Part shown: positions 35,786 to 63,701 of the stretch, piece by piece | Numbering within the stretch: the first letter of the stretch is position 1 | Layout of the letters: every line of letters starts with the position of its first letter | DNA from: a virus | IMG/VR virus record: IMGVR_UViG_3300030104_005063 | Coordinates: 1 to 64,000 of that record | Strand: one strand, 5' to 3' | DNA: 64,000 nucleotides | The notes under the pieces: generated by a model | Database searches by the model: none | Told to the model about the DNA's origin: nothing | What the model saw: only the letters and a program-made list of their open reading frames with translations | Program-made: the position numbers and the translations under genes

Positions 35786-35793
35786 ATATTTAT
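35786..35793 (+). promoter_or_regulatory. ATATTTAT motif heading the glycan island
   Basis: Recurrent intergenic octamer. Confidence 0.55.
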
Positions 35794-35826
35794 ATATATA
35801 GTTATTAACTTAACAAGGAATTGGTT

Positions 35827-36024
35827 ATGAAGCATGAGACAAAATTAACATCTGTTAAAATTTTAAGAAGTTTATATGAACGATTTAAATTTAAAACAGT
35901 TAATTCTTCTATGAACTTACAAAAATTGGTTAATCGTTCTATTGATCAATACATACATGATAATGTAATACAAGAACAAATGGAAACTTATGACCGACTA
36001 CATATAAGTGGGAGTCAGTTTTGA
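35827..36024 (+). CDS. Small ribbon-helix-helix-like protein
   Basis: KLTSVKI strand followed by two helices (LYERFK...LQKLVNRSIDQY). Confidence 0.5.
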   Translation: MKHETKLTSVKILRSLYERFKFKTVNSSMNLQKLVNRSIDQYIHDNVIQEQMETYDRLHISGSQF

Positions 36025-36266
36025 TGAGAGAAGAATTAATTAAAGCTAGTAAAATGCATTTTGAAGCACATATAGAAAAACATCGTGTAAATGTAGAAAA
36101 CATTTTACATAATTCAGTTGGTGTAGCTGAACACTCGGATATAATTGACACTATAGAAAAAGAGTTAGAAGTTATTGCCGAGTACGATGATAAACTTAAT
36201 GTTTTAAAAAAATATTTTCCTAATGATTATCAAGGAGACGATGTGAGGAAGTTAATAAATGGCTAA
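36021..36266 (+). CDS. Hypothetical helical protein
   Basis: VGVAEHSDI...IEKEL motif; coupled to neighbours. Confidence 0.7.
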   Translation: MMREELIKASKMHFEAHIEKHRVNVENILHNSVGVAEHSDIIDTIEKELEVIAEYDDKLNVLKKYFPNDYQGDDVRKLING

Positions 36267-37620
36267 GAAAAAAATATTATTAATGTCAGATGATTTAAGA
36301 ATGCATAGTGGAGTGGCTACCGTATCTAAAGATATTGTATTTGAGACATTGAATGAATATGATTGGGTACAAATCGGTGGTGCTATAAAACATCCTGAGG
36401 TCGGTAAAATTATTGATATGTCTCAAGGTCTTAATGAATTTGGTATCAAAGATGGTTATTTAAAAATATATCCTGTAGATGGATATGGTAATGAGGATAT
36501 ACTTAGAGAGGTAATGGAAATAGAAAAACCAGATGCTATACTTCACTATACAGATCCTCGTTTTTGGATTTGGTTTTATAATATGGAGTCTGAAATTCGT
36601 AGAGAGATTCCAATATTTTACTATAACATTTGGGATGACTTACCAGATCCACAATACAATACTAACTACTATAAAAGTTGTGATTTGTTGATGGGTATAT
36701 CAAAACAAACTTATGGTATTAATAAAAGACTTCTACCAGAATATGAAGATTGGCAAGTAACTTATGTTCCACATGGAATATCTGAAAGAAGATTTAATAA
36801 AGTTGAAGATGATAATACCTCGCTATTAGATTTTGAAGCTAAACACAACATAGGTGATAAGAAGTTTAAGATACTTTACAGTAATAGGAACATTAGAAGA
36901 AAACAACCTAATGATTTAATTTTAGCGTACAAGTATTTTATGGATGAACTAACACCAGAACAAAGAAAAGAATGTGTGTTGATTTTTCATTGTAATCCAA
37001 CCGATGAAAATGGAACAGATTTACCAAGAGTTCACAAACATTTAATTCCTGAATATGATATTTGTTTTACATACGATACAGATGGTAGACCTTTCAATGA
37101 CCAAGAAATGAATCTATTATTCAATTCAGCTGATGTTTATGTCAATATGGCTTCCAATGAAGGATTTGGATTGGGTAGTGCTGAAGCACTTACAGTAGGC
37201 ACACCAATAATTGTAAATGTTACAGGTGGTCTGCAAGACCAATGTGGATTTAGAAATGATGGTGGTGATTTTTTAATACCTGAAGATTATGTCGAATTAG
37301 GAACTAATCATAGAGGTCGATATAAAACTCATGGTGATTGGGTAAAACCTGTTTATCCAACTTCAATATCATTACAAGGTTCTCCAATGACACCTTACAT
37401 ATGGGATGACAGATGTCAGCCAGAAGATGTTGCTAAAAATTTAAGAGAATTTTATGATATGGGTAGAGAAGAAAGAAAAAGACTTGGTTTACTAGGAACA
37501 GAGTTCTGTAAAGAAAATCAAATGACATCAAAAGCTATGGGACAAAATTTTATTGATTCTATGAATGGTGCTTTTGAAAATTGGAAACCACAACCTAAAT
37601 ATCATATGGAGGCAGTATGA
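36259..37620 (+). CDS. GT4-like (GT-B) glycosyltransferase
   Basis: SGVA, VPHGI, RNIRRK and SNEGFGLGSAEAL..GTPII motifs. Confidence 0.88.
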   Translation: MAKKKILLMSDDLRMHSGVATVSKDIVFETLNEYDWVQIGGAIKHPEVGKIIDMSQGLNEFGIKDGYLKIYPVDGYGNEDILREVMEIEKPDAILHYTDPRFWIWFYNMESEIRREIPIFYYNIWDDLPDPQYNTNYYKSCDLLMGISKQTYGINKRLLPEYEDWQVTYVPHGISERRFNKVEDDNTSLLDFEAKHNIGDKKFKILYSNRNIRRKQPNDLILAYKYFMDELTPEQRKECVLIFHCNPTDENGTDLPRVHKHLIPEYDICFTYDTDGRPFNDQEMNLLFNSADVYVNMASNEGFGLGSAEALTVGTPIIVNVTGGLQDQCGFRNDGGDFLIPEDYVELGTNHRGRYKTHGDWVKPVYPTSISLQGSPMTPYIWDDRCQPEDVAKNLREFYDMGREERKRLGLLGTEFCKENQMTSKAMGQNFIDSMNGAFENWKPQPKYHMEAV

Positions 37621-38972
37621 AACGAAATGTGTTGATGATTGCACCTTTCAATACTCGTAGTGGTTACGGTGACCACGCTCGTTCAATATATTATTCTATT
37701 ATGGATAGAGAAGATTTGGATATAAAGTGTATTGATGTTAAGTGGGGAAATACACCACGAAATCATCTTAAATCAGAAATCCCTAGACATAAAAAGTTGT
37801 TAGACAGTTTTATTGCACATGATAAAGTACAAGGACAACCAGATGTTCTTATTGACATAAGAATACCAAATGAGTTTGCTACTGGCGCTAAACTTAATAT
37901 TGGTATAACCGCTGGTGTTGAAACTGATGTTGTCTCACCTGAATTTTTAGATGGGATGAATCGTATGAACTTTAATATCGTACCATCTCGTTTTACAGCA
38001 GACACATTTAATCGTTGTACTTATGACCGAATGGAAGATTTACCTAATGGTCAAAAAAGAAAGTCTGGTGAAGTTAGAAACGAAAAACCAATTCATGTTT
38101 TGTTTGAAGGAGTGGATACCGATGTATATTATCCTAAACAAAAACATCAGTTAGAGAAAAAATTGTGTAGTGAACTAGATGAACTTATCAAAGAAGATTT
38201 TGCTTATCTTCATGTTGGACAATGGGGACAAGCTAGTTTTGGAGAAGACAGAAAAAACATTGGAATCTTGATAAAGTCTTTCTTAAAGGCATTTGCTAAT
38301 ATTCCTAACCCACCAGCACTTGTTTTAAAAACTAATGGTGCTAATTTTAGTATTCTTGATAGACAAGAGATTAAGAAAAGAATAAATCATGTTAAAGATA
38401 TGTTTGATGGTGTTAATTTACCAAACATTTATTTAATACATGGTGATTTTACTATTGAAGAAATGTCAACACTTTACAACCATCCAAAAATTGGTGCTTT
38501 TATTACTTGTACTCATGGTGAGGGTTATGGCAGACCGATGGCTGAAGCTACTTGTTGTGATTTACCTGTTATTGCCACTAAATGGAGTGGACACATGGAC
38601 TTTCTCACAGACTCAGAATCTATGTTAATTGATGGTTTTTTACAACCTGTACCTAAATCTTCTATTTGGAAGCCGATTATTGTAGAACCATCAAGGTGGT
38701 TTAATGTAAATGAAGCTGATGTGGTTAGAAAGATTAGAACTTTTCATAAGAAAAGAAAACTAATACAAAAGAAAGCCACTCGTTTGGGTAAGAAGAATAG
38801 ACGAGAGAAGTCTTTGAAAGCTATGAAAATTCAATTTAATAAAATATTAGATGAAGCACTAAAATCAATTCCGCAAGCTGTTGGTTTAAAACTGCCTAAA
38901 TTGAAAAAAGTTGGTGGAGACACTTCTAAACCTGCAAAGTTAAAGTTACCTAAATTAAAAAAAGTAACATAA
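37617..38972 (+). CDS. GT4-like (GT-B) glycosyltransferase
   Basis: SGYGDHAR, GVDTDVY, RKNI and HGEGYGRPMAEA...LPVIATKWSG motifs. Confidence 0.88.
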   Translation: MKRNVLMIAPFNTRSGYGDHARSIYYSIMDREDLDIKCIDVKWGNTPRNHLKSEIPRHKKLLDSFIAHDKVQGQPDVLIDIRIPNEFATGAKLNIGITAGVETDVVSPEFLDGMNRMNFNIVPSRFTADTFNRCTYDRMEDLPNGQKRKSGEVRNEKPIHVLFEGVDTDVYYPKQKHQLEKKLCSELDELIKEDFAYLHVGQWGQASFGEDRKNIGILIKSFLKAFANIPNPPALVLKTNGANFSILDRQEIKKRINHVKDMFDGVNLPNIYLIHGDFTIEEMSTLYNHPKIGAFITCTHGEGYGRPMAEATCCDLPVIATKWSGHMDFLTDSESMLIDGFLQPVPKSSIWKPIIVEPSRWFNVNEADVVRKIRTFHKKRKLIQKKATRLGKKNRREKSLKAMKIQFNKILDEALKSIPQAVGLKLPKLKKVGGDTSKPAKLKLPKLKKVT

Positions 38973-39385
38973 TGGAAGATTTCATCCTAAGAGTAAAATG
39001 TCCTATCTGCCTACAAGAAGACGGAGAGAAAAATACATCAGACACTCTTGTATTACTTGGTGATGATGAACAAAATATGCAATGTTTAGGTTGTGGGTAT
39101 GGTTCTAATAACAAAATGAAAACTCATATTCAACCTTTACCTGAAGACTTTAAGGATGTTTGTGTTACGACTGGTGAAGATAGATTTTGGGCACCATCTG
39201 TGTTTACAACAGAAAATTATCAAGTAGTTCCTATGGTTAATAAAAAAGAATTGAAATGGAGAGTGTTTGCTCACACTGATCCTGAGACAGAGGTGGTAGT
39301 TCCGACTTTTGGTGATGCTTTTAAAATGGTAGAGAAAATGGAGAATTTAATTGGCAAGACGATACAACAACAGACGGATAATTAA
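38972..39385 (+). CDS. Hypothetical Zn-binding protein
   Basis: CPIC...CLGCG. Confidence 0.65.
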   Translation: MEDFILRVKCPICLQEDGEKNTSDTLVLLGDDEQNMQCLGCGYGSNNKMKTHIQPLPEDFKDVCVTTGEDRFWAPSVFTTENYQVVPMVNKKELKWRVFAHTDPETEVVVPTFGDAFKMVEKMENLIGKTIQQQTDN

Positions 39386-39809
39386 GTCGATTCAAACAGT
39401 CCCATCTCGTAGGCTAATACCTGGTATGATAGTCACATTTAACTATTCTGAACAAGGTGTTATGGATCCTCGTCCTATTTTACTTTTTTTACATGAAGAC
39501 AGTAAGACAAAAAATATTGAAGGTTTAAATTTAAATTATCTTAACCCAACTAAGTTAAAAAAATTATTCCAAGTAATGGATTTCAAAAAAACTAAGTTGG
39601 ATGAAGTCGAAAATCTAATTAATTTGACTGATGAGTATTTTAGGATTCAGATTTCTAACCCAAAGAAAAGATCTGCAATGTCCACCAAAAGATTTTATAG
39701 TGATGTAATATTATCTGATAAATTTTTTAAAGAAGCATATAGAGCTTATAAAATAGGTAAATTGACCTCACTAAAAGTTACACAAATAAATACTCAATTT
39801 ATTCAATGA
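39351..39809 (+). CDS. DNA end-protector-like protein (T4 gp2-like, tentative)
   Basis: PGMIVTFNY...DPRPILL...GLNLNYL resembles the gp2 core. Confidence 0.45.
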   Translation: MARRYNNRRIIKSIQTVPSRRLIPGMIVTFNYSEQGVMDPRPILLFLHEDSKTKNIEGLNLNYLNPTKLKKLFQVMDFKKTKLDEVENLINLTDEYFRIQISNPKKRSAMSTKRFYSDVILSDKFFKEAYRAYKIGKLTSLKVTQINTQFIQ

Positions 39810-40429
39810 AAATTAGTTACTCAATGTTGGTTCATAATGAAACCGACACTCTTGAAAAATTATTAGAATTTTTAGTAAAGTATAAACAACCACGAGATGA
39901 AATTGTTATATTAGATGATTATTCTGATAACGAAAAGACTAAAATTATATTAGATTATTATTCTTCAGCAGAGGGTGTCGTACTTGAACAAAGAAATCTT
40001 CTAGGTGACTTTGCTACTCAAAAAAACTATCTTAAGAATATGTGTTCTGGTGATTATAGTTTTAATTTAGATGCTGATGAGATAGTAACACATTGGTTTA
40101 TGAAAGATATTCATGAAATATTAAATGGTAATGAGGTTGATTTAATTTTTGTGCCTAGAATAAATACAGTAGAGGGAATTACAGAACAACACATAAGGGG
40201 TTGGGGTTGGCAAGTAAATGAAAAAGGTTGGATAAATTATCCTGATTGGCAAGGTCGTATTTTTCGTAATAGACCAAACATTCGTTGGGAAAAACCAGTT
40301 CATGAACAGCTCATAGGATTTCAAACTTATGCTCACTTACCAATGGAACAAAAATATTCTATTATTCATCCAAAGACCATAGATAGACAAGTGAAACAAA
40401 ATCAAAAATATTCAGAAATTTTAAGATGA
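39806..40429 (+). CDS. GT2 glycosyltransferase
   Basis: HNE, ILDDYS, NLDADE, RIFRN and VHE motifs. Confidence 0.88.
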   Translation: MKISYSMLVHNETDTLEKLLEFLVKYKQPRDEIVILDDYSDNEKTKIILDYYSSAEGVVLEQRNLLGDFATQKNYLKNMCSGDYSFNLDADEIVTHWFMKDIHEILNGNEVDLIFVPRINTVEGITEQHIRGWGWQVNEKGWINYPDWQGRIFRNRPNIRWEKPVHEQLIGFQTYAHLPMEQKYSIIHPKTIDRQVKQNQKYSEILR

Positions 40430-41442
40430 TAAAAATTAAATTACTAGAACTAGACAAACACAGAAATGAAACTACATTTAGACCTTTTCTTTTTGCCGCA
40501 GAATTGTTTAAAGAAGTAGGTATAGAATTTACAAATTCTGATGATTGTGACTACGCGTTTGTAGGTCAAGCTAGTATCATAGATAAAAAGAAACCTTTAA
40601 AAGAATCAATAAATGATGGCTTAGATTTTGTTTCTAAAATTAGTGGAGATTATTTCATAGTTGATGGACAAGACTCTACCACTTTGATAGGAACAATTGA
40701 TGTTTTTCGTGAGTCAAATGCTAAACTATTTTTAAAAAATACATACTTAAAAGATTTTAATTTGTACAAACAAGGTTGGGCTAATGGTAGAATGTATTGG
40801 GGAGAGGGTAATTATTCTGTACCAGACATACACGATTTAGAGCCTAATATGGAGTTAACAGGTTGTAATTGGTTACACACTCTGCAACCAAATTGGTATG
40901 ATTATAATCAAGATAAACCATATGATTTGTCTTGTATGTTTAGTTATCCAACAAAAGAACCAGTTTATGAACATGATTTATGTCAGACAGATTATTATGA
41001 TCCTCACAGAAAAAATTTAATGGACATCTTAGGTGATAAATATAATGTAGCTAAATTAGTAGATGGTGTAAGATTACCACCACAAGAGTATTATAAAAAA
41101 ATGTTCAACTCTAAGATTATTTTAGCACCAATTGGTTATGGTGAAATGGCACCTAGAGACTTAGAATCTGCTATGTTTGGTTCAGTATTGATGAAGCCTG
41201 ATATGAGTTATATTGATTCCAAACCTTTTATATATGAAGATGATGAGACATATATTGCTGTAAATTATGATTGGTCTAATCTTGAAGAGAAGATAGACTA
41301 TGTGTTATCAGATTATAGTAACATTAGAGAAAAACTCGTCCAAAATATGAGAAAAAAATATCATGAGAAGTATGATTTAAAAAATTTAGTGTTGCATATT
41401 TATGATATTTTTAGTAGATTAGATGAGGTAGAAACATCATGA
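40426..41442 (+). CDS. GT-B-like glycosyltransferase (paralog of 58178)
   Basis: SKIILAPIGYGEMAPRDLE..MFGSVLMKPDMS. Confidence 0.7.
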   Translation: MIKIKLLELDKHRNETTFRPFLFAAELFKEVGIEFTNSDDCDYAFVGQASIIDKKKPLKESINDGLDFVSKISGDYFIVDGQDSTTLIGTIDVFRESNAKLFLKNTYLKDFNLYKQGWANGRMYWGEGNYSVPDIHDLEPNMELTGCNWLHTLQPNWYDYNQDKPYDLSCMFSYPTKEPVYEHDLCQTDYYDPHRKNLMDILGDKYNVAKLVDGVRLPPQEYYKKMFNSKIILAPIGYGEMAPRDLESAMFGSVLMKPDMSYIDSKPFIYEDDETYIAVNYDWSNLEEKIDYVLSDYSNIREKLVQNMRKKYHEKYDLKNLVLHIYDIFSRLDEVETS

Positions 41443-42449
41443 AATTTGGTTTAATAACAGACGACACAGCAATAAATTCTTATTACATAAAAGATGGAAC
41501 TGCTTTTGGTTATCATAATGATGAACCATACATTTACCACCATGCTTTTTCACCTGAGTGTTTTGTTGCTATGATGAACTTACCATTTTTATTTGATTTT
41601 GGGTGTTATATAAATTGGATAGAGTGGCAAGACAAAGAGCTACCAGATTATGATTTGGATTTAATACTTTATGACAATGGAAAAATTGGACTTGAAGAGA
41701 AATATTATGATGACTACAAAGTAGATATATTGAGAGAAAAATACCCTAATGCTAAAATAATGGGTTGGATAAAAGAGGTAAATGTAAAAACACACAGACT
41801 TGAAAACAGAGTTAAGTTTTTAAATGATTGCGACTCTGTGATAACATCAGGTATATCAGATAATTTTAAGAATTTGGATATGTTTAAATATTTGAAATCA
41901 GTTGTTGATAAAGATTTTTATTTTATATCACAACCTGTAAATGTAAATTATTTATTTGATAATTTTTATTCCGAAGAAAAAGAAAATGTTATTTGGGCAT
42001 ATTTACCTAATCCAATGTATAGGAGAGGTAGAACTTATGAGTTTACAAATTATCTTGGTGAAAAATATGGTGTTGAAGTTAGAAGAAAACCACTTCAACC
42101 AGGTCAAAAGTTTGACCATATTAGTCAATGGGATTTTATAGAAATGTGGTCAAAATGTGCTTATCATTTTAACATGGATCCTTCTGATATTCATCCAGGT
42201 AATCAAGTTATGCAAACCGCTGCTGTAGGGTGTATAAATTTTGGTGGATTTAATGAATCTCATAGTATATTATATCCGAAAACAGCAACTTGTGATGAAA
42301 AAATTTTAGAAGAAAAATTTGTAGAATATTTAAATAATGAAAATAAAAGATTTGAAGCAATACAGTACGCTTGGGATAAAGTAAATGAGGTGTATGGTTT
42401 TAAATCAGTTGTAAATCAAATAAATCAAATATATGGAGAACTTGGATGA
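41439..42449 (+). CDS. Putative GT-B glycosyltransferase
   Basis: Glycan-island context; C-terminal FNMDP...PG.QVMQTAAVG segment is reminiscent of a GT-B donor domain. Confidence 0.45.
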   Translation: MKFGLITDDTAINSYYIKDGTAFGYHNDEPYIYHHAFSPECFVAMMNLPFLFDFGCYINWIEWQDKELPDYDLDLILYDNGKIGLEEKYYDDYKVDILREKYPNAKIMGWIKEVNVKTHRLENRVKFLNDCDSVITSGISDNFKNLDMFKYLKSVVDKDFYFISQPVNVNYLFDNFYSEEKENVIWAYLPNPMYRRGRTYEFTNYLGEKYGVEVRRKPLQPGQKFDHISQWDFIEMWSKCAYHFNMDPSDIHPGNQVMQTAAVGCINFGGFNESHSILYPKTATCDEKILEEKFVEYLNNENKRFEAIQYAWDKVNEVYGFKSVVNQINQIYGELG

Positions 42450-43324
42450 AAGTTTTAGTAACAGGTGGTGTTGGGTTTATAGGCACTAATTTAATAAAAA
42501 GATTATTAGACGATGGACATAAAGTTGTTAGCTTAGATAACTATTCCACAGGAATAAAAGAAAATGAGTTACAACAAAAAGGAGTTCAGTACTTTGATGT
42601 TGATTTAAGATATGTACATGATTATGATTTTTTTATGGATAAACCTGACATTATTTTTCATATCGCTGCACTTGCTAGAATACAACCATCAATGGAAGAT
42701 CCGACAACATCTATTCAAAATAATTTTGATAGTACACTTAACATATTAGAGTGGGCTAGAGCTAAAAAATGTCCTGTTATTTTTGCTGGTTCAAGTTCTT
42801 TTCATCAAGGGTTGTGGGACAGTCCTTACGCGTGGTCTAAATTTGCTGGAGAACAACTTTGTGAACTATATAATAAAGTGTATGATTTACCAACCACCGT
42901 TTGTAGGTTTTATAATGTATACGGTCCACATCAAATAGAAGGTGGTGATTATGCTGCTGTAATTGGTATTTTTGAAAGACAATATAAAAACAATGAATCA
43001 CTAACCATTACAGGTGATGGGGAACAGAGAAGAGATTTTACTCATGTGGATGATATTGTCGATGGTTTAGTCAAGTGCGGTGAAATGATTGTTACAGATC
43101 GTGGTTATGAAATTAGTGGTGAGGAGTTTGAACTCGGAAGAGGAATTAACTTTTCAATTAATGAAATAGCAAATATGTTTGGGGAGGACTATTCAAAGGA
43201 ATATATCGATGCTAGACCTGGAGAATATGAAATGACATTATGTACTGATGATAAAGCTAAAAAATTATTAAATTGGGATGCAAAAATTAACATTGATGAT
43301 TACATCGAGGGAGTTATAAAATGA
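42446..43324 (+). CDS. NAD-dependent sugar epimerase/dehydratase
   Basis: TGGVGFIG, SPYAWSK, RFYNVYGP and GDGEQRRDFTHV motifs. Confidence 0.92.
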   Translation: MKVLVTGGVGFIGTNLIKRLLDDGHKVVSLDNYSTGIKENELQQKGVQYFDVDLRYVHDYDFFMDKPDIIFHIAALARIQPSMEDPTTSIQNNFDSTLNILEWARAKKCPVIFAGSSSFHQGLWDSPYAWSKFAGEQLCELYNKVYDLPTTVCRFYNVYGPHQIEGGDYAAVIGIFERQYKNNESLTITGDGEQRRDFTHVDDIVDGLVKCGEMIVTDRGYEISGEEFELGRGINFSINEIANMFGEDYSKEYIDARPGEYEMTLCTDDKAKKLLNWDAKINIDDYIEGVIK

Positions 43325-43953: not shown

Positions 43954-43962
43954 GGGGTTATC

Positions 43963-52976: not shown

Positions 52977-52979
52977 TTT

Positions 52980-52987
52980 ATATTTAT
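52980..52987 (+). promoter_or_regulatory. ATATTTAT motif inside the glycan island
   Basis: Recurrent intergenic octamer. Confidence 0.55.
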
Positions 52988-53006
52988 ATATATATAAAGG
53001 TTATGA

Positions 53007-56237: not shown

Positions 56238-57225
56238 TAAAACATATGTGATTGGCACTCATGTTATGTGGTTTGAGATAGAGATGTATGCTGACTTTAT
56301 CGATGGTATGGTTAATTTATTGGAAACTGTCGATAATACAGAGAATGTAACCATAGATTTATGTTTTAATATGTTACAGCATTTTGAAGAGGTTGATTAT
56401 GATAAGATAAAGAAACATGAGTTGGTAATTAAATTTAAAAAGGGTGTGGCCATATTGGAGTCTATGGGATTTATTGTCAATCAAGAGATTAAAGATGGTG
56501 ATGAGTTTTACTTTCATGCTGACTACAGAAGAGATTTAAACTACAACTATTGTAAGAAAGTGGACTATGTGATGTGGGGTGAAACAGATAGTTTCTTTCC
56601 ACGAGAAGCATTTCAGGTGGTAGAGGCATTATCAAAGTACACCGATGAACAAAATATACATAGATATTTACTTAGTTTTTCTGATAGAAAGATGTGGGAT
56701 GCTAGCTGGGATGCTTTAGTTCATAATGATTATGTTAACTTAGAATTTGTAGACGATGATGAAGGTCACTTAAATCCAAATCAAGCTAAATCACCGATGT
56801 CTATAGAAAAAATGAACGAGATAAATTCTAAAGCTGAAGAGTTCGATTTTTCTTATATACAGTATCCAAAGATAAGTGGTGCTTGTTTGGTGTTGTCATC
56901 TGATTTAATAAAGTCTGGAGTAAACATACCACCTTGTTTACTGTATAATGATGATGAGGGTTTATCAATAATGTCACATAAGTTACTTGGGGATAAATAT
57001 ATTCAGTTTGTGGTTAAAAATGTCTTACATGTTCATGCTAGAAGACACCCTCAAAAGAGAATGTATGTTAAAGGTGAAGATAATCCTTATTCTTTTATCG
57101 GTGACAAAAATGATAATTTTCAAAAGTTTTTAAGTATGTCAAAACAAAATATACAAACTCTTGCTACAGAGCAAGGTAAATTTAAAGAGTATAATGATTT
57201 AAAAAATATATTGGAGTCAAAATGA
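56224..57225 (+). CDS. Putative GT-A fold protein
   Basis: WGETDS (DxD-like position); glycan-island context. Confidence 0.45.
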   Translation: MVNLSKTYVIGTHVMWFEIEMYADFIDGMVNLLETVDNTENVTIDLCFNMLQHFEEVDYDKIKKHELVIKFKKGVAILESMGFIVNQEIKDGDEFYFHADYRRDLNYNYCKKVDYVMWGETDSFFPREAFQVVEALSKYTDEQNIHRYLLSFSDRKMWDASWDALVHNDYVNLEFVDDDEGHLNPNQAKSPMSIEKMNEINSKAEEFDFSYIQYPKISGACLVLSSDLIKSGVNIPPCLLYNDDEGLSIMSHKLLGDKYIQFVVKNVLHVHARRHPQKRMYVKGEDNPYSFIGDKNDNFQKFLSMSKQNIQTLATEQGKFKEYNDLKNILESK

Positions 57226-58181
57226 AAAGAGTATTAATCACAGGTATTAACGGTATGGATGGAAGTCACCTTGCAGATTTTCTTTTAGAGAAAGGATACG
57301 AGGTGTATGGGATGGAAAGAAGAACATCGAGTCCAAATAGAACTAACACTAAACATCTTGAAGGTCAGATAACATTTGTTAATGGTGATTTAACAGATCA
57401 AAACTCGTTAGTAAGGTGTTTGAGAGAGTCAAATCCAGACGAGGTTTATAATCTTGCTGCACAATCATTTGTGGGAGAAAGTTGGAACACGCCTGAACAA
57501 ACAGGTGATGTCACAGGTCTCGGTGCTTTGAGAATGTTAGAGGCAATAAGAGAGTATGGAAAAGAAATTAGATTTTATCAAGCATCAACTTCAGAGCTTT
57601 ATGGTAGAATGATTGAAAATCCAGCGAATGAAAACACACCATTCTATCCTCGTTCACCATATGGAGTTGCTAAATTATATGGTCATTGGATTACGAAAAA
57701 CTACAGAGAGTCTTATGACATGTTCAATGTAAGTGGTATATTATTTAATCACGAATCCGAGAGAAGAGGTGTTGAATTTGTAACTCGTAAGATTACTGAT
57801 GGTGTTGCTCGTATTCACTTAGGGTTAGAAGATTATATTACTTTGGGTAATTTAGATTCAAAGAGAGATTGGGGATATTCTCCAGATTATGTTAAGTCAA
57901 TGTGGATGATGTTGCAACAAGATGAGCCAGATGATTATGTTATTGCTACAGGAGTTGAACACTCTATAAGAGATTTTTTAGATTGTGCTTTTCAACACAT
58001 CGGTGTTACTGAATGGTCTAAATATGTTTTACAAGATGAGAGATATATGCGACCAGCAGAAGTCGCTGTATTATGCGGAGACTCATCAAAAGCTCGTCAA
58101 GTTATAGGATGGGAGCCAGAAACATCCTTTAAACAGATGGTTTCTAACATGGTGGACAATGATATACAATTGTTATCATGA
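57222..58181 (+). CDS. gmd: GDP-mannose 4,6-dehydratase
   Basis: LITGING.DGS.LA, YNLAAQS, FYQASTSELYG, PRSPYGVAK, FNHES.RRG..FVTRKI and RDWG motifs. Confidence 0.95.
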   Translation: MKRVLITGINGMDGSHLADFLLEKGYEVYGMERRTSSPNRTNTKHLEGQITFVNGDLTDQNSLVRCLRESNPDEVYNLAAQSFVGESWNTPEQTGDVTGLGALRMLEAIREYGKEIRFYQASTSELYGRMIENPANENTPFYPRSPYGVAKLYGHWITKNYRESYDMFNVSGILFNHESERRGVEFVTRKITDGVARIHLGLEDYITLGNLDSKRDWGYSPDYVKSMWMMLQQDEPDDYVIATGVEHSIRDFLDCAFQHIGVTEWSKYVLQDERYMRPAEVAVLCGDSSKARQVIGWEPETSFKQMVSNMVDNDIQLLS

Positions 58182-59191
58182 TAAAAGTAAAATTAACAGA
58201 CTCAAGTAATATGAAATGTTTTAGTGGGTTGATTCACACTAAAGATTTATTAAGAGATTACAGCATAGATATAACCGACTCGGATGATTATGACTACGAG
58301 TTTGTTCATGCTGATGAGTTTGTTAATTTGTCTTTACCACTACAAGAAAGCATAGATAGAGGTATAGATAACTTAAGTAAAAAGTCTGGAGATTACTTTT
58401 TGTTTCACGGTGGAGATTCCACCTCTATAATGGGAGCATATGAAGTGTTCATAGAATCTGAAGCTAAATTTCTTTTTAAAAAACAACTTCTATCTCAAGA
58501 TGACTATAAGAATAAAACTACCATAAATAAATGGTTCTTCGGAAACGATTCAGATTTAGATAAAGGTTATGATATATCAGATGATGTTTATGATAGGATG
58601 AAACTTACTGGTTATAATGTTGCTCATAACTGGCCTCATTTACAACAGATGCAAGTTGGTAACATAAATAGAGATGTAGATGTTTGTGCTATATATCAAG
58701 GTATATTAGATAATGGTAATATGGATCACGAGTTGAGAACTGATGTGTTGTATACTAAACATAGAAAAACAGCTTGGGATATACTTGATAATTTGAATGA
58801 TAAATATAATGTGGTAAAAGGTCAATCAACTCCACAACAATTTGTTGAAGTGATGAAAAGGTCAAAAGTAGGATTATCTCCATTTGGTATGGGAGAGTTA
58901 TGTTACAGAGACTTAGAGTTAATTCAATGGGGTTGTTTGTTAGTCAAACCTGATATGAGTAAGGTTATAACAGAGCCAGACTTTTTTAAACCAATGGAAA
59001 CCTATGTGCCAGTAAAAGCAGATTGGTCAGATTTAAATGAAACGATAGAAAAAGTTCTTGCTAATTTTAAAGATTATCAGTATATTATAGACAACTCTAG
59101 AAAGAAAGTAGTGGAAATGTATAGTTATGAAAATGTTTGTATGTATTGGTATAAATTTTTTTCCAATTTAAGTGGGGTAGGTAATGCATAA
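58178..59191 (+). CDS. GT-B-like glycosyltransferase (paralog of 40426)
   Basis: SKVGLSPFGMGELCYRDLE...GCLLVKPDMS. Confidence 0.7.
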   Translation: MIKVKLTDSSNMKCFSGLIHTKDLLRDYSIDITDSDDYDYEFVHADEFVNLSLPLQESIDRGIDNLSKKSGDYFLFHGGDSTSIMGAYEVFIESEAKFLFKKQLLSQDDYKNKTTINKWFFGNDSDLDKGYDISDDVYDRMKLTGYNVAHNWPHLQQMQVGNINRDVDVCAIYQGILDNGNMDHELRTDVLYTKHRKTAWDILDNLNDKYNVVKGQSTPQQFVEVMKRSKVGLSPFGMGELCYRDLELIQWGCLLVKPDMSKVITEPDFFKPMETYVPVKADWSDLNETIEKVLANFKDYQYIIDNSRKKVVEMYSYENVCMYWYKFFSNLSGVGNA

Positions 59192-60092
59192 AATAACATC
59201 GGTGATTCCGACTTACAACAATTTACCATTTTTAAAATTAACTGTCACATCGGTTAGACAGAATTGTTATTATAACGATATGCCGATTGTTATATTTGCT
59301 GAAAATTGTACCGATGGTACAAACGATTGGCTACATAATCATGCTGACGAGCTTGGTATTGAATACTACATAGAAGATGGAAAGGATAGAGAAGACCAGC
59401 GAGGTATCGGTGGTGGTATTGATTATTGCGTTAGTAAGGTTAAAACAGAATTTGTCAATATATTACACTCAGACTTTTGGGTTGGTCCTAATCAAGATAT
59501 CGAGTTACTAAAGTTATATGATGACATAGAATTAAATGAAAGATTGATTGCTTCTTCATTCAGAGTTCAACCGAACATATTTCCTAATGATCCTCCTTAT
59601 AGACCTGGTACTATCTTTGTTGACTTTGATGAATTTGGTGCTCACGATACAGATTTTGATGGTGATTATTTTGACCAATGGTCTAATGAATTTACAAAAG
59701 ACAACGACATTTATGTCAGAAAAGGTGGTGGTGCTGGTTATTTCTGTAGAGTAGAAGACCATATTTACATAGGTGGTAATGATCCTAGATTTGAACCAAT
59801 GTATTGGGAAGATAAAGATTTATTTATGAGAATGCAAATGGAGGGGTATAAATTTATAATGACAAGTAAATCTCTTATCTGGCATTTTACATCAAGGACA
59901 TCAAGATTTCCTGATGGTACAAAGGTGTTGGATAATAATAAAAGACCAGCACATTTAGTTCATTGGGAACAAAGAGCAACACAAAGATTCATAGAAAAAT
60001 GGGGTAGGCTTCCAAATGAAGATAGTGAGTCGTTTGTTGTTCCGATTGAAGGAACAAATAACCCAAATAGAATAGAGTGGCCTTTCGTATGA
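59184..60092 (+). CDS. GT2 glycosyltransferase
   Basis: VIPTYNN, CTDGT, HSD, GGND..F....EDKD and WHF.S motifs. Confidence 0.85.
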   Translation: MHKITSVIPTYNNLPFLKLTVTSVRQNCYYNDMPIVIFAENCTDGTNDWLHNHADELGIEYYIEDGKDREDQRGIGGGIDYCVSKVKTEFVNILHSDFWVGPNQDIELLKLYDDIELNERLIASSFRVQPNIFPNDPPYRPGTIFVDFDEFGAHDTDFDGDYFDQWSNEFTKDNDIYVRKGGGAGYFCRVEDHIYIGGNDPRFEPMYWEDKDLFMRMQMEGYKFIMTSKSLIWHFTSRTSRFPDGTKVLDNNKRPAHLVHWEQRATQRFIEKWGRLPNEDSESFVVPIEGTNNPNRIEWPFV

Positions 60093-60967
60093 AATTAAAA
60101 CAAAAAATAGGTGTTGTAGGAAATGGTTTTGTAGGTGGAGCTGTCAAGTTTGGTTTTTCACCACAAGTTGGTTGTGATGCTGAAGTTAGGGTTTATGACA
60201 AAAACCCAAACAAATCAACACATACACTAGAAGAGACAGTTAATGAATCTGATTTCATATTTTTATCAGTACCAACACCGTCAAATGAAGATGGTTCTAT
60301 TAACATTGACACATTAAACGATGCTTTAAATGATATTAATGAAGTTCACAATGGTAAACATAATATAATATTAATTAGGTCAACTGTAATACCTGGAACT
60401 ACTTGGGCTTTACAAAAAAAGTATCCTGAGTTAAAAATATTATTTAATCCAGAATTCTTGACTGAAAGGTCTGCTAATTTTGATTTTATAAATCAATCTC
60501 GTTTCATAATAGGACATAATGGAAATCAATTAAGTATGATGCACTCTGAAAGCTTTTCTGATTTGATTAGAGATAGATTTGGTGATTGTGTTGCAATATT
60601 AGAAACTAATTATGAAACGGCTGAACTTATTAAATATATGAGTAATTGTTTTTTTGCCACTAAAGTATCTTTTATGAATGAGATGTATCAAATAGCAGAG
60701 AAAATAGACGCTGATTGGGACGCAGCAGTTGATGGTTTTGTGGGTGATGGTAGGATAGGACACTCACATTTAGGGGTGCCAGGACATGATGGTAAGTTTG
60801 GATTTGGTGGTAGTTGTTTCCCTAAAGATATACAGGCGATGATTGAATTTGCTGAAATGTTTGGAATTGAACCAAGTGTCTTAAAAGGTGTTTGGAAAAA
60901 GAATTTAGATGTGAGGCCGGAACAAGATTGGAAAAAACTAAAGGGGAGAGCTGTTGTAGATGAGTAA
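60089..60967 (+). CDS. UDP-glucose/GDP-mannose 6-dehydrogenase (short form)
   Basis: GNGFVG, VPTP, RSTV.PGT, NPEFL, AELIKY..N and FGGSCFPKD motifs. Confidence 0.9.
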   Translation: MKLKQKIGVVGNGFVGGAVKFGFSPQVGCDAEVRVYDKNPNKSTHTLEETVNESDFIFLSVPTPSNEDGSINIDTLNDALNDINEVHNGKHNIILIRSTVIPGTTWALQKKYPELKILFNPEFLTERSANFDFINQSRFIIGHNGNQLSMMHSESFSDLIRDRFGDCVAILETNYETAELIKYMSNCFFATKVSFMNEMYQIAEKIDADWDAAVDGFVGDGRIGHSHLGVPGHDGKFGFGGSCFPKDIQAMIEFAEMFGIEPSVLKGVWKKNLDVRPEQDWKKLKGRAVVDE

Positions 60968-61793
60968 AATATTATTAGTTGTAACAACTTATAATCAATC
61001 TGAATATACTAAGTTGTGTTTTGATTCTTTAAAAAAACTAGATGACAACTTTGATGTGTTAGTGGTTGACGATTATAGTACAGATAATACTGTTGAACTT
61101 TGTAATGAATATGGGTATGAGGTCATGACAAAAAGTGAGGGTAAAGGTTTAACTCACTCTTGGAATTTAGGGTATCAGAGATTTAAGAAACATTGGTTTT
61201 ATAATTCAAGTGGCATGGATGACCAATATGAGTATTTAATTATAGCTAATAATGATGTATTAATTCCAAATGGAGCTATGAATCAATTACTTGAATCATT
61301 TTATCAATGGCCTTATTCATTGATAGTTCCATTATCTACAACTTATGGTGCTGGTTCTAATGCTCAATTTCAATCAATTGAAAATTATTATCAAGGTATG
61401 GCGCCATCTTGTAATGATCCTAAATACTATCAAGAGATACAAGACAAAATACTTGATGTAAAAGAACAGACAAGAAAATCCAATAATCTATACATGCTGG
61501 ATACTTGTAGAATGAAGATGTTTAATGGTTTTTTCTTCATGATGAACAGGAATATAATTAATTATGAACACGATAATGATATTCTATTTAATCCTGATTT
61601 CAATATGACCAAGAATGAAGATGAATTTAATTGGAGTAAGTTAATACCTAACAATGATTTTCCAGCAGTTTGTAAAACATCTTTTATTTTTCACTATAAG
61701 GGTGTGTCCACATTTGAAGTTTTTGATAACTATGGTAAAATATCAAATGATGTTTCAGAATGGAAACGACAAAGGGAATTAAAAGGTGGATAA
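60960..61793 (+). CDS. GT2 glycosyltransferase
   Basis: TTYNQ, VVDDYSTD, WN.G, ANNDV, NEDE and FHYKG motifs. Confidence 0.85.
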   Translation: MSKILLVVTTYNQSEYTKLCFDSLKKLDDNFDVLVVDDYSTDNTVELCNEYGYEVMTKSEGKGLTHSWNLGYQRFKKHWFYNSSGMDDQYEYLIIANNDVLIPNGAMNQLLESFYQWPYSLIVPLSTTYGAGSNAQFQSIENYYQGMAPSCNDPKYYQEIQDKILDVKEQTRKSNNLYMLDTCRMKMFNGFFFMMNRNIINYEHDNDILFNPDFNMTKNEDEFNWSKLIPNNDFPAVCKTSFIFHYKGVSTFEVFDNYGKISNDVSEWKRQRELKGG

Positions 61794-62448
61794 AATAAAT
61801 TATATCACAGACACTTATCCTTTCAGAGAAATTGTAGAGTGTTGGTTTTGGGATGAATCCATATTACCGCTAAGTGGTATTTCAAATTTACATCTTGAGA
61901 AAACTTATGATTTATTTGAAAGAAAAAATGACCAGTCAACAATATGGCATAAATGTTTTTATAAAGAAATTAGAGAGGATGATTCGTTTAACGACATCTA
62001 TTTAAAATTTTTAGAAGATATAATTAAACCAAGATTTGGTGAAAAAATAGTATATCAAAAAATACCAACATTTAGAGTTCATTTGCCAGGTAATGTATCT
62101 GTTGGTGAGTTTCATAAAGACAGACATTATAGGGATGAAGAATGGGCTAATAAGGTTCAAGAATTGAATTACTTTGTGCCATTAACTAAAGCTTATGGGA
62201 CTAACACGATATGGGCAGAAACAGAGGAAGACTTGAGTGATTTTAAAGAGATAAGAGCAAATTACGGTGAGTGTGTAGAGTGGAATGCTAGTAAGTTGAC
62301 TCATGGTAATAAACAAAATATGACTAGAGTGACAAGAGTAAGTTTTGATTTCAGAGTGATACCAAAATCGAGATATGTAAATAGTGAGCATTTAACAATT
62401 AACACCAATGTGCCTTTTGAAATTGGTGGATATTATGGGGTTTTATAG
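61786..62448 (+). CDS. Fe(II)/2-oxoglutarate dioxygenase-like protein (StrG/PhyH-like)
   Basis: PTFRV, FHKD (HxD), N.FVPLT and HGN..N....TRVSFDFR motifs. Confidence 0.75.
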   Translation: MDKINYITDTYPFREIVECWFWDESILPLSGISNLHLEKTYDLFERKNDQSTIWHKCFYKEIREDDSFNDIYLKFLEDIIKPRFGEKIVYQKIPTFRVHLPGNVSVGEFHKDRHYRDEEWANKVQELNYFVPLTKAYGTNTIWAETEEDLSDFKEIRANYGECVEWNASKLTHGNKQNMTRVTRVSFDFRVIPKSRYVNSEHLTINTNVPFEIGGYYGVL

Positions 62449-63701
62449 TGAATGAAGTTATAAGTTTTATACAACCAAGTAGAAACAATTTAAAGTATCT
62501 GAAGTGGTCTTATGACAGCATCAGAAAGAACTTAGGATACCGACACGAAATATGTTGGGCTGATGATTTCTCTGATGATGGGACTTGGGAGTGGATGCAA
62601 GAGATTGCTGAAAAAGATAAGAATGTTAAAATACATCGTAATGAAGGTCCTACAAGATTAGGTCATACGATACTTTATGATACATTAATTAATGACTATG
62701 CTACAAACGACATCGTAATGATTTATCATGCTGATATGTATGCCTGTCCTAAAATGGATGAGGAAGTTCTAAAACATTTAGAACGAGGTAAGGTAGTCAG
62801 TGCAACTCGTATAGAACCACCACTACATCCTGATGGACCAGAAAAGATACTCAAAGACTTTGGTATAGAACCTGAAGAATTTGATGAGATGGGACTAATG
62901 AACTTTCTTAAATTTGCTAGGGAACAAAGAGAAGTAAATAAAAATAATGGAGAAGGAAAGACTACCAATGGTATATTTGCACCTTGGGCTATATACAAAG
63001 ATGACTTTACCAGTATTGGTGGACATGATCCGTTATATGCTCCACAATCTAAAGAAGACTCTGATATATTCAATCGATTCAAGTTAGCTGGGTATGAGTT
63101 TATTCAAACCTGGCAAGGATTCGTATATCATATGACTTGTAGAGGTAGTAGATTCAAAGATGGAGCTATGAGGAATCCAGCAGGTCAAGTCTTCATGAAA
63201 AATAGAGAATCATCAGAGTGGTTAGCTCAAAATCTTAGGTCAACTCGTAATTTCATTCGTAAGTGGGGACATATGGTAAAACATGATGAGTATTTGAAAC
63301 CGATAGTGCCACCAAAATACAAAGTGTATTTCAAAGCATATAACTGTAATCTTCAGTTGTTACATGAGTTAGAACCGTGGTGTGACTCCATATATTTAGA
63401 TTATGGCTCTGTTGGAAAGTATTCTCATGAGTATAGAAAAAAAGAACAACCAAATACTCAATTCAACTTAGACGAGAGAATATGGATGTATGGAAATAGC
63501 AAGATAACAGATAAAGATGGTGTCGTTGTAGAGTTTGATTGTAATAAATTAACACCAACTAACTTTCAAATAATAGTAAATTTGTCAGAAATAGTTCAAG
63601 AAAGCGGAGAGTTGGGTGAAATGGAACTCGACATATTTAAATTTTATATTAATTCGTTAGAGACTTACGAAAAAAACTTAATCGTTTGTAAGACTAACTA
63701 A
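62448..63701 (+). CDS. GT2 glycosyltransferase with C-terminal extension
   Basis: PSRNN, DDFSDDGT, HADM, GGHD..YAPQSKEDSD and YH motifs. Confidence 0.85.
   Translation: MNEVISFIQPSRNNLKYLKWSYDSIRKNLGYRHEICWADDFSDDGTWEWMQEIAEKDKNVKIHRNEGPTRLGHTILYDTLINDYATNDIVMIYHADMYACPKMDEEVLKHLERGKVVSATRIEPPLHPDGPEKILKDFGIEPEEFDEMGLMNFLKFAREQREVNKNNGEGKTTNGIFAPWAIYKDDFTSIGGHDPLYAPQSKEDSDIFNRFKLAGYEFIQTWQGFVYHMTCRGSRFKDGAMRNPAGQVFMKNRESSEWLAQNLRSTRNFIRKWGHMVKHDEYLKPIVPPKYKVYFKAYNCNLQLLHELEPWCDSIYLDYGSVGKYSHEYRKKEQPNTQFNLDERIWMYGNSKITDKDGVVVEFDCNKLTPTNFQIIVNLSEIVQESGELGEMELDIFKFYINSLETYEKNLIVCKTN

Follow-up and report, generated by a model that had tools for sequence, protein, structure and literature searches.

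What does a phage do with 28 kb of genes for making and linking sugars, and on which molecule is the resulting glycan built? The question is raised by an island of genes at positions 35786-63701 of the window (the whole 64,000-nt stretch of DNA that was analysed), part of a 100.5-kb record of an uncultured marine phage, probably one with a host in the Flavobacteria. The PolB of the record is 31-33% identical to cyanophage PolB, and the lineage is immuto/RM378-like, different from the T4-like marine myophages with sugar islands. We consider glycosylation of the phage's own virion to be the best reading of the island, at somewhat less than an even chance, with a candidate acceptor proposed from gene content, synteny and motifs.

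Organization of the island

The island comprises 34 ORFs, all on the plus strand, and both its coordinates and its gene content had been given correctly by an earlier, sequence-only reading. Adjacent ORFs overlap at 31 of the 33 junctions, mostly by ATGA, and there are only two gaps, of +9 and +30 nt. This bears out the two translationally coupled runs described in that reading. Each is headed by the promoter-like motif ATATTTAT, located at 35786..35793 for run 1 (in the extended form TATATTTATATATA) and at 52980..52987, within the +30-nt gap, for run 2. The last GT2 gene ends with its stop at position 63701. The genes encode glycosyltransferases (GTs) together with deoxysugar, amino-sugar, methylation and radical-SAM enzymes. 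The island adjoins replication and recombination genes and lies outside the structural module, a location that we counted against virion glycosylation.

Genes unrelated to glycans are also found at the island head. Two small conserved ORFs (35821..36266), a 67-aa RHH-like ORF and an 81-aa phrog_1811 ORF, are both present in 5/5 full islands. They are followed, after the first two GTs, by a 137-aa Zn-ribbon ORF and a 152-aa homologue of the T4 gp2 DNA end protector (38972..39809). The latter was assigned through Atlas clusters with PF26869 (Phage_T4_gp2), and its true start may be Met26.

The nucleotide-sugar and tailoring genes noted earlier were recovered, with Gmd the only one to reach an equivalog cut-off. 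A nucleotide-sugar block (42446..47494) encodes an SDR epimerase/dehydratase, a split TPP E1-like enzyme, an RfbH/ColD-type DegT enzyme and two Fcl-like reductases. Next comes a rare fusion of a radical-SAM/SPASM-like N-terminal part and a GT-D-like C-terminal part (47494..49176), of which IMG/VR has a single close relative. The next segment (49173..52976) contains a 4,6-dehydratase-like SDR, an RmlC-like epimerase, a weak GT2 and a conserved trio (a 129-aa protein without assignment, a cupin and a PfkB kinase). Run 2 begins with a PIG-L deacetylase, a methyltransferase with an N-terminal domain that lacks an assignment, a GT8, a small methyltransferase-like ORF and a virus-only 333-aa ORF (53007..57225), followed by the GDP-mannose 4,6-dehydratase Gmd (57222..58181; TIGR01472, 425 bits against a cut-off of 415). 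The conserved island tail (58178..63701) consists of a Glyco_trans_1_2-like GT, a GT2, a UDP-glucose dehydrogenase-like (Ugd-like) ORF without its C-terminal domain, a second GT2, an unassigned 220-aa ORF and a 417-aa GT2.

Glycosyltransferases

We counted seven firm GTs and up to 13 possible ones, so that the "about 14" GT-like genes of the sequence-only reading stand as an upper bound. Six exceed their Pfam cut-off: the ORFs starting at 36259 (GT4), at 39806, 59184, 60960 and 62448 (GT2) and at 54946 (GT8). The seventh, at 37617, is supported by PHROG, fold and a conserved EX7E motif. Six leads are sub-threshold: the Glyco_trans_1_2-like ORFs at 40426, 58178 and 41439, 47494 in its C-terminal part (GT-D, 25 bits, cut-off 27), 50608 (GT2, 16 bits) and 56224. 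The ORFs at 40426 and 41439 (40426..42449) are putative GT-B enzymes (Pfam E 1.2e-3), the second more distant; in hhalign comparisons with 58178 they scored 100% and 83% probability, respectively. The short GT2 at 39806..40429 (207 aa) is without a membrane anchor and is conserved in 5/5 islands.

Two GT4-like enzymes stand at the island head. GTa (36259..37620; PF00534, 39 bits) has a GT-B fold, keeps the EX7E motif and is a lineage core gene. Its AF2 model has a pLDDT of 80.8, its Foldseek matches are GT4 enzymes, and its best PDB sequence match is chlorovirus B736L. GTb (37617..38972; phrog_2170) also carries EX7E, and ends in a basic, Lys-rich C-terminal tail of repeated LPKLKK. Its AF2 model (pLDDT 85.3) has 3oy2 as top Foldseek match (E 2e-17), the nearest solved structure being the chlorovirus GT B736L. 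The viral models nearest to GTb are giant-virus GT4 enzymes, and a T4-type DNA alpha-GT ranks only 42nd; we counted these matches towards virion glycosylation.

The island enzymes could instead serve some other intracellular acceptor: they might build a soluble glycoconjugate, or modify proteins of the host or a phage protein outside the virion structure, perhaps redirecting host metabolism or countering a defence system. The solubility of the island enzymes fits this, as do the small-molecule GTs among the fold neighbours of GTa and GTb (MshA, BshA, GlgM and sucrose-phosphate synthase) and a borderline GTa match (25.9 bits, cut-off 26) to GT4-conflict (PF20706), a family also precomputed on most homologues. 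However, the PF20706 match spans the donor-binding motif only, hypervariability between close relatives is hard to explain for a non-surface product, and the link to the tail-gene motif and the virion peptide motif described below would be left unexplained. We consider such an acceptor improbable.

Membrane, priming and export functions

By Kyte-Doolittle analysis, the island ORFs contain no membrane segment except for one marginal match inside the TPP enzyme, in line with the earlier statement that no multi-pass membrane protein is visible. Membrane proteins were likewise not detected among the 425 ORFs that follow GTa in 38 related loci or in the four full islands of relatives. The claimed lack of a priming transferase and flippase also held up: we found no member of the Bac_transf, Glycos_transf_4 or Polysacc_synt families in the record, three relatives or the complete immuto genome, and no flippase, polymerase or transporter among the 87 gene families of five full islands. 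In O-antigen and capsule loci of bacteria, diverse GTs go with a cognate Wzx/Wzy pair or ABC transporter, and a given Wzx or Wzy usually accepts its own repeat unit only. Soluble GTs without export or priming genes were counted in favour of cytoplasmic glycan assembly for the virion.

This evidence bears on an alternative in which the phage GTs act at the inner membrane face on undecaprenyl-linked intermediates of the host and depend on the host for priming, for a flippase or ABC transporter and for a ligase, changing the LPS O-chain or capsule of the infected cell. Such remodelling could block superinfection or keep progeny from being trapped on debris. Since GT-A and GT-B enzymes working on undecaprenyl-linked intermediates are likewise soluble or peripheral, missing membrane spans are compatible with this route, and the basic tail of GTb could bind anionic membranes. 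Several gene families of the island (Gmd, RfbH-like, RmlC, Ugd, GT2, GT4 and GT8) are typical of O-antigen and capsule loci, the conserved ends and mosaic middle resemble serotype loci, and envelope modification is the published reading for islands of cyanomyophages (PMC12801897) and pelagimyophages (PMC7029224). Against it stand the absence of primer enzyme, flippase, polymerase and ligase from the 87 families and the immuto genome, the retention of the GT pair across hosts with unrelated envelopes, and the virion-specific peptide motif, which it does not explain; expression from a tail-gene motif would also leave scant time for replacing the cell surface. We regard envelope remodelling as rather unlikely, if a serious competitor.

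Conservation and variability among relatives

Comparable islands, of 25-32 kb and between the same flanks, occur in four long relatives. Together with the island of the window they show conserved ends and a mosaic middle, the five full islands containing 55 singletons among their 87 gene families. GTa and GTb are core genes of the lineage (at least 8000 protein clusters), with homologues in the cultured Flavobacterium phage immuto, Microcystis phage Mel-JY01 (host as labelled) and Rhodothermus phage RM378. That the pair is core across phages of such different hosts argues for a phage-encoded acceptor.

A promoter-like motif shared with tail genes

The sequence-only reading had linked the island runs to the sheath and tube genes by a common motif, which we confirmed. 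The number of ATATTTAT copies is not above chance (16 against 12.3 expected), though their placement is non-random (p = 2e-5): of the plus-strand copies in the 100.5-kb record, 11/17 are intergenic, 12-138 nt before a start codon, as compared with 17.4% of 8-mers of the same composition and an intergenic share of 5.8%. Copies lie upstream of the genes for sheath and tube, of the next tail operon and of both runs of the island. The motif is kept at the island head in 73/75 related loci and in immuto, where the 10-mer is further found upstream of the baseplate hub gene, of a tail-fibre module and of the gene that follows the one for the major capsid protein. This may point to late expression of the island together with the tail genes. 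As ATATTTAT is also found upstream of nrdJ (22838), it may not mark a strictly late class. The gp2 homologue lies within run 1, in the same operon as the GT pair; in T4, gp2 is a late protein and part of the virion.

A tripeptide motif in virion proteins

The tail sheath (2217..4121, plus strand) is a candidate acceptor, with [S/T]-G-S at residues 62, 106, 131, 155, 274 and 283. These are six sites where 0.77 are expected; every other protein of the record has at most one, and in this record the sheath alone shows the enrichment. Sheath homologues, 76 in all, carry 4.6 sites on average where 0.76 would be expected, and three of the sites are each retained in 71-76 of them. The structural blocks of immuto contain 107 sites against 31.3 expected, as compared with 10 against 14.4 in its other proteins, and SGS and TGS are about 5 times commoner than permutations of the same residues. 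No enrichment was seen in a T4 control of 18 structural proteins (7 against 9.6 expected), and the pattern was not found in the RM378 sheath. The motif could be a structural repeat of fibre proteins.

DNA as a possible acceptor

The island sugars and GTs might instead decorate hydroxylated or hydroxymethylated phage bases, going beyond the mono- to trisaccharides known on DNA. Consistent with this, a DNA-modification-type module lies 10 kb downstream of the island. Its genes are a TAGT gene (PF20691, scoring above cut-off), a GT-B-like ORF, three paralogues resembling N6_N4_Mtase, and one gene each for a PLP enzyme, an HD hydrolase and a GmrSD/HNH nuclease. The GTs known to act on DNA resemble GT4 enzymes and occur with sugar-synthesis genes (PMC13326640; bioRxiv 10.1101/2023.12.21.572611), the island is beside replication genes, the RM378 GT pair sits between PolA-like and RNR genes, and GTb has its Lys-rich tail. 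However, LC-MS of digested DNA from immuto, which has a homologous island, gave dA, dC, dT and fdPreQ1 replacing dG, with no glycosylated nucleoside reported (bioRxiv 10.1101/2023.04.13.536721), and a DNA target is unlikely for this reason. Neither Mel-JY01 nor RM378 has ThyA-family, Tet_JBP or TAGT genes, known DNA glycans take 1-3 GTs against 7-13 here, the TAGT module is served by GTs of its own and by another promoter type (TTGAC...TAnnTTTAG), and a T4-type DNA alpha-GT is a distant structural match. We judge DNA to be the least probable acceptor, and highly improbable.

A proposed model of virion glycosylation

The core GT pair, the gp2 homologue, the immuto DNA and the virion [S/T]-G-S sites shift the odds towards a phage-made acceptor. 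The earlier proposal of a complex glycan assembled late and in the cytoplasm on capsid or tail proteins is partly supported: the soluble enzymes and missing export and priming genes, the promoter-like motif shared with sheath and tube genes, the core pair, gp2 in the operon and the virion-only motif speak in its favour, while the late timing and the virion acceptor are predictions. In the corresponding model, whose timing, acceptor, GTa and GTb roles and chemical steps we infer, the island would be a self-contained cytoplasmic assembly line, co-expressed with tail genes from a ATATTTAT-type promoter. Host GDP-mannose, UDP-glucose and similar precursors would be converted into rare deoxy, amino, branched and methylated sugars by phage enzymes, among them Gmd, the 3-dehydratase-type DegT enzyme, the Fcl-like reductases, the TPP enzyme and the RmlC-like epimerase, and further the Ugd-like enzyme, methyltransferases, the deacetylase and the radical-SAM enzyme. 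The 7-13 soluble GTs would link these sugars into a chain, probably started on the phage-made acceptor by GTa and GTb, and the variable middle genes would make the glycan strain-specific. The most likely acceptors would be surface proteins of the virion, those of sheath, baseplate, spike and fibres, with [S/T]-G-S as possible attachment sites.

Comparison with known systems

Mycobacteriophages reportedly have one to four GTs beside structural genes and are said to carry glycans on the C-termini of their capsid and tail tube subunits. The present case differs in its 34 genes with their own sugar pathways, a Gram-negative host, internal [S/T]-G-S candidate sites and a virion glycan that is predicted. 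What the mycobacteriophage system shares with it are soluble phage GTs, proposed or shown to glycosylate virion proteins within the cytoplasm and without export (Freeman et al. 2023, Cell Host Microbe, on virion O-glycosylation, as cited in PMC12619734 and PMC12801897).

Giant viruses glycosylate autonomously, as in the N-glycans of chlorovirus Vp54 and the fibril glycans of Megavirinae (PMC9614988, PMC4691112), and likewise use soluble viral GTs, rare bacterial-type sugar pathways and clade-specific clusters. They are eukaryotic viruses, unlike the phage studied here, and sequence identity is 13-18%. The acceptor of B736L, from chlorovirus NY-2A, the nearest structure to GTb and nearest PDB sequence to GTa, is not known (PMC9614988), which we counted against virion glycosylation.

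Phage DNA glycosylation systems (glucosyl-hmC of T-even phages, arabinosyl-5hoC of RB69 and DLP3 (PMC13326640), TET-associated GTs (bioRxiv 10.1101/2023.12.21.572611)) also combine soluble GT4-like GTs with phage sugar-nucleotide genes, and the record shares with them a TAGT gene, outside the island. Unlike in those systems, no base hydroxylase or hydroxymethylase was found here, and the island GTs far outnumber the need of any known phage DNA glycan. Moraphages and related large Bacteroidota phages are likewise large aquatic phages with predicted Flavobacteriia hosts and Rhodothermus phage kin; they have four core GT orthogroups that lack an assigned role, and no 25-32 kb variable sugar island or acceptor is described for them (PMC12619734).

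The sequence-only reading set the island apart from known phage systems. This was too strong, as hypervariable sugar/GT islands of marine myophages are already published (PMC7029224, PMC12801897): the pelagimyophage "host recognition cluster" is one (PMC7029224), and cyanophages P-SSM2, S-SCSM1 and S-SCSM2R have cell-wall/LPS gene sets (PMC12801897). Like the present island, those of T4-like myophages are large GT and deoxysugar blocks of putative function, at a fixed locus, with content that varies between relatives. They lie between VrlC and gp14, whereas the present island is beside replication genes, lacks tail-fibre genes and forms one contiguous, translationally coupled 34-ORF block. S-SCSM2R has 13 GTs, described as possibly the most in any marine phage (PMC12801897); our upper count equals this within one island. 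The T4-like myophage papers favour modification of the host surface (PMC7029224, PMC12801897), the O-chain in particular. If the virion reading is true, the island would most likely provide a strain-specific glycan coat on the phage's own tail proteins without export genes.

Genome context and host

The record is a linear contig of 100,504 bp with an estimated completeness of ~55%, and its first 64 kb form the window. Window genes lie on the + strand throughout, at a GC content of 29-40%. They encode a contractile tail (sheath, 2217; tube, 4164) and a T4-type replisome comprising UvsX (18261), helicase (20391), PolB (28335) and clamp loader (31641 and 32775), all on the + strand. No integrase was seen. 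Two tRNA genes, tRNA-Ala(TGC) and tRNA-Cys(GCA), lie side by side at L003:12663-12819, in a record part beyond the window, and are the sole Rfam matches in the last 18.5 kb. The even composition and strand, together with the same flanks of the glycan island in four independent contigs, rule out a chimeric or host-derived contig.

A megablast search with 20-24 kb pieces found no nucleotide-level relative in the phage collection, so relatives had to be sought by protein. The nearest isolates are the Microcystis phage Mel-JY01 (PolB 45.6%) and the cultured Flavobacterium phage vB_FspM_immuto, here called immuto (sheath 46%; GTa, the first GT4 enzyme of the island, 45%); the Rhodothermus phage RM378 is farther off. 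Directly 3' of the B12-type RNR gene, the phage encodes a TonB-dependent receptor (window 24937-27705) with CarboxypepD_reg and Plug domains, an architecture that we take to be SusC-like. From this receptor and the nearest relatives, we infer a host among the Bacteroidota, probably the Flavobacteriia.

Gene content of the glycan island

The glycan island comprises 34 ORFs over 35821-63701. As proposed from the sequence-only reading, they form overlapping runs: 31 of the 33 junctions overlap, and the only gaps measure +9 nt and +30 nt, the latter containing the second copy of the promoter-like motif ATATTTAT. About 15% of the estimated 180-kb genome is devoted to glycan synthesis.

We annotated the island by Pfam, PHROG and NCBIfam scans and used hhalign for Glyco_trans_1_2-like proteins; ORFs are named by their start in the window. 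The two GT4-type enzymes (36259 and 37617) are accompanied by GT2 enzymes (39806, 59184, 60960, 62448 and, weakly, 50608), a GT8 (54946) and Glyco_trans_1_2-like proteins (40426, 58178 and, distantly by hhalign, 41439). A further ORF (window 47494-49176) fuses a radical-SAM/SPASM-like part to a GT-D-like part and has a single close relative in IMG/VR. Its N-terminal half is a separate 251-aa ORF in one relative. The initial count of about 14 glycosyltransferase-like genes is an upper bound: seven are firm and the total is at most thirteen. Pfam searches at E up to 1 gave no match for 41439, 61786 or the N-terminal part of 53609.

Nucleotide-sugar enzymes include five SDR enzymes, among them two Fcl-like reductases and a genuine Gmd (57222), which scores 425 bits where the cut-off is 415, as well as an RfbH/ColD-type DegT, a split TPP E1-like enzyme and an RmlC-like epimerase. 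The 296-aa UDP-glucose/GDP-mannose dehydrogenase-like (Ugd-like) ORF (window 60077-60967) has the N-terminal and central domains and is missing the C-terminal nucleotide-sugar-binding domain; the islands of three out of four relatives have an equally shortened ORF (294-297 aa). Tailoring and other genes encode a cupin, a PfkB kinase, a PIG-L deacetylase and methyltransferases.

A conserved glycosyltransferase pair heads the island

GTa (36259..37620) and the GT4-like GTb (37617..38972) are distant paralogues that share 23% identity over the donor domain. EX7E columns are invariant in both, and a GtfA/GtfB-like arrangement, in which only one of the partners is active, was therefore rejected. 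AF2 models show GT-B folds (pLDDT 80.8 for GTa and 85.3 for GTb). Of the solved structures, chlorovirus NY-2A B736L comes closest to GTb (E 2e-17; next match 2e-13), and it is also the top PDB sequence match of GTa; the PDB sequence search gave no match for GTb, the radical-SAM fusion or the TAGT protein encoded beyond the window. The acceptor of B736L is not known (PMC9614988). Among viral fold matches, giant-virus GT4 enzymes came first and the T4-type DNA alpha-GT only 42nd. Overall, fold searches of GTa and GTb returned generic GT4 matches that indicated no acceptor.

The GTb C-terminus (window 38886-38969) carries two basic LPKLKK copies in a disordered tail (pLDDT <50). LPKLKK is invariant in 22 relatives, and immuto GTb has three degenerate copies. 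The tail may serve in docking or in binding to membranes or DNA.

The island is a fixed locus with a mosaic middle

More than 100 GTa relatives were found in IMG/VR at 62-87% identity, and GTa formed at least 8000 clusters in a set of 5.8 billion proteins; in marine metagenomes this lineage is very common. In four long contigs that were extended, the island measures from 25.5 to at least 31.8 kb. Its borders are the same each time, with a DprA/SLOG-like gene on the upstream side and small ORFs related to 63730-64875 on the downstream side. The conserved head covers 35821-40429 and also the SDR at 42446; the conserved tail consists of a methyltransferase, GT8, 56224, Gmd, 58178, GT2, the Ugd-like ORF and the final GT2. 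Between them, the middle is a mosaic. The 179 proteins of the five islands fall into 87 families, of which 12 occur in all five islands and 55 in one only. Phage immuto has an 11-kb version in the equivalent place, 3' of the PD-(D/E)XK nuclease gene; the Mel-JY01 version spans ~6.5 kb, and RM378 has the GT pair only.

Promoter-like motifs and expression

The proposal that the motif heading both island runs also precedes the sheath and tube genes was borne out. The total count of ATATTTAT is not above expectation, and its placement is distinctive: 11 of the 17 + strand copies in the record are intergenic, 12-138 nt 5' of a start codon, compared with 17.4% for 8-mers of the same composition (p = 2e-5). 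Other copies precede the next tail operon, the gene at 17452, nrdJ (window 22838-22845) and four sites beyond the window. Because one copy precedes nrdJ, ATATTTAT may not be a purely structural or late class marker. At the island head, 73 of 75 related loci retain the extended form TATATTTATATA despite the variable spacer around it. So does immuto, where the identical 10-mer is also found 5' of the baseplate hub gene, a tail-fibre module and the gene that follows the one for the major capsid protein. Judged by the motif, a late timing of the island is plausible. The gene that separates GTb from the conserved GT2 encodes a homologue of the DNA end protector gp2, which in T4 is a late protein and part of the virion.

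Replication genes have another signal, TTGAC followed after ~17-20 nt by TAnnTTTAG (window 13295-13331, 28265-28334 and 30861-30916; L002:14851-14930, in a record part beyond the window). This signal resembles the Bacteroidota -33/-7 promoter consensus and is a putative second promoter class distinct from ATATTTAT. Sigma-70-type promoters and terminators within the island were at chance level. At L003:9243-9543 (record 91243-91543), a 300-nt GC-richer intergenic stretch carries a repeated GTTAAAGCGATACTTTAA element followed by ATATTTAT; it has no Rfam match.

Export and priming genes are absent

The expected lack of multi-pass membrane proteins was confirmed, as no island ORF has a hydropathy-predicted membrane span. 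There were also no multi-span ORFs in 38 related loci or in the full islands of four relatives. Nor did we find a priming transferase or flippase: Bac_transf, Glycos_transf_4 and Polysacc_synt are absent from the record, three relatives and the complete immuto genome, and the same searches gave matches in 10, 12 and 13 of 14 control genomes, respectively.

These results bear on the host envelope as the target of the island glycan. Similar cyanomyophage and pelagimyophage islands have been read in this way in the literature, and lipid-linked intermediates would be accessible to soluble GTs. Nevertheless, we consider this target unlikely, given that the primer enzyme, flippase, polymerase and ligase are absent both from the 87 families of the five islands and from a whole isolate genome, and that the GT pair is conserved among hosts with unrelated envelopes. 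In bacterial loci, GT diversity is paired with the locus's own Wzx/Wzy or ABC transporter. If true, host-surface remodelling would make the island one of the largest known phage auxiliary pathways.

DNA as a candidate target

A DNA-hypermodification-type module lies 10 kb beyond the island, outside the window (L002:10322-19794; record 73322-82794). It encodes three N6_N4_Mtase-like paralogues (with N-terminal domains that have no assignment), a PLP enzyme, a GT-B-like ORF, TAGT (record 76984-77850; 38.3 bits against a Pfam cut-off of 27.5), a GmrSD-N/HNH nuclease and an HD hydrolase. No ThyA-family or TET/JBP base-modifying enzyme was detected in the 100.5-kb record (~55% complete), and the Tet_JBP search had no match in any control genome. 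The occurrence of this module in the same record would fit a role of the island in DNA glycosylation, as would the known phage DNA glycans, in which GT4-like enzymes and sugar genes of the phage assemble up to three sugars. However, the TAGT module is separate from the island, with its own GTs and the other promoter type. ThyA-family, TET and TAGT genes were not found in the complete genomes of Mel-JY01 and RM378. One ThyA-family gene is present in immuto, for which LC-UV-MS/MS of virion DNA detected dA, dC, dT and fdPreQ1 replacing dG, and no glycosylated nucleoside was reported. We therefore regard DNA glycosylation by the island as highly improbable.

A peptide motif is enriched in virion proteins

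The sheath of the record (2217..4121) contains six [S/T]-G-S sites, compared with 0.77 expected from composition shuffles; every other protein has at most one. Its 76 homologues average 4.6 sites (0.76 expected), and those at residues 62, 155 and 283 recur in 71-76 of these proteins. In the complete immuto genome, the structural blocks contain 107 sites (31.3 expected) and all other proteins 10 (14.4 expected). The twelve most enriched immuto ORFs are all structural, including tail spike gp101 with 26 sites against 5.8 expected. SGS and TGS are ~5 times commoner than their own permutations, and in fibre-type proteins the motif context is hydrophobic-[S/T]-G-S-[F/L/I].

As a control, 18 T4 structural proteins contained 7 sites (9.6 expected), and the T4 sheath had no site at all. 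Occurrence of the motif is not simply tied to the GT pair, since the sheath of RM378 shows no enrichment. The adjacent RM378 hypothetical proteins p077 and p078 (L181:45326-48048; RM378 record 64825-67547) have 3 and 5 sites, against ~0.6 expected for each. We note that the enrichment is a correlation and could mark a structural repeat rather than a glycosylation site.

The initial interpretation, a virion glycan, is partly supported. The soluble enzymes and the lack of export genes held up, and the virion acceptor stands as a lead from sequence. Our best reading, which we favour tentatively, is a phage-made acceptor, most likely virion tail proteins. A more specific model appears possible although doubtful: an abundant lineage of Bacteroidota phages would perform export-free protein O-glycosylation. 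The sequon [S/T]-G-S, present on proteins of the sheath, baseplate, spikes and fibres, would be recognised by the pair of core GT4 enzymes, and a swappable 15-20 kb cassette would then supply the virion with a glycan coat that differs between strains in the manner of a serotype. If true, no earlier example would be known from phages of Gram-negative bacteria. A virion coat of this kind would give particles serotype-like surface diversity, with effects on adsorption, grazing, aggregation, enzymatic attack and recognition by antibodies or lectins, and would add a hidden layer to marine phage-host arms races. The question is directly testable in immuto, which is cultured, has a homologous island of 11 kb and shares the peptide motif.

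Comparison with known systems

Like O-antigen and capsule loci, the island is strain-variable and combines nucleotide-sugar pathway genes with several GTs. Wzx/Wzy or ABC-transporter loci, however, have an initiating phosphoglycosyltransferase (WbaP/PglC, WecA) and a multi-pass flippase or transporter, polymerase and ligase, none of which was found in the island. Serotype-converting Gtr/Oac modules of temperate phages encode membrane GtrA, GtrB (a GT2 with C-terminal spans) and a type-specific Gtr or acetyltransferase, whereas the island has no membrane ORFs; a 207-aa GT2 matched GtrB-like PHROGs over its N-terminal 120 residues only (E 1e-4).

In mycobacteriophage-type virion glycosylation, the GT genes lie in or beside the structural module. 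The island instead follows clamp loader, ClpP-like, PD-(D/E)XK and DprA/SLOG genes, and shares with late genes only the promoter-like motif and the gp2 homologue. The mycobacteriophage glycan is on capsid or tail subunits; the counterpart here is the [S/T]-G-S enrichment, a lead from protein sequences only, and the system, if real, would be far more complex. Giant-virus autonomous glycosylation is similar in its virus-encoded soluble GTs, rare-sugar pathways and clade-specific clusters; its glycan is on capsid or fibril proteins, and the island product would be a candidate counterpart. The host recognition cluster of pelagimyophages and cyanomyophages is also hypervariable, but it lies inside the structural region with tail-fibre genes, while the island has no fibre genes and has replication-type flanks. 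The general kind is thus known, both as hypervariable sugar islands in marine myophages and as virion glycosylation in mycobacteriophages and giant viruses. What sets the present case apart is its distinct lineage and fixed locus, the core pair of GTs, the candidate peptide motif, and the lack of export genes anywhere.
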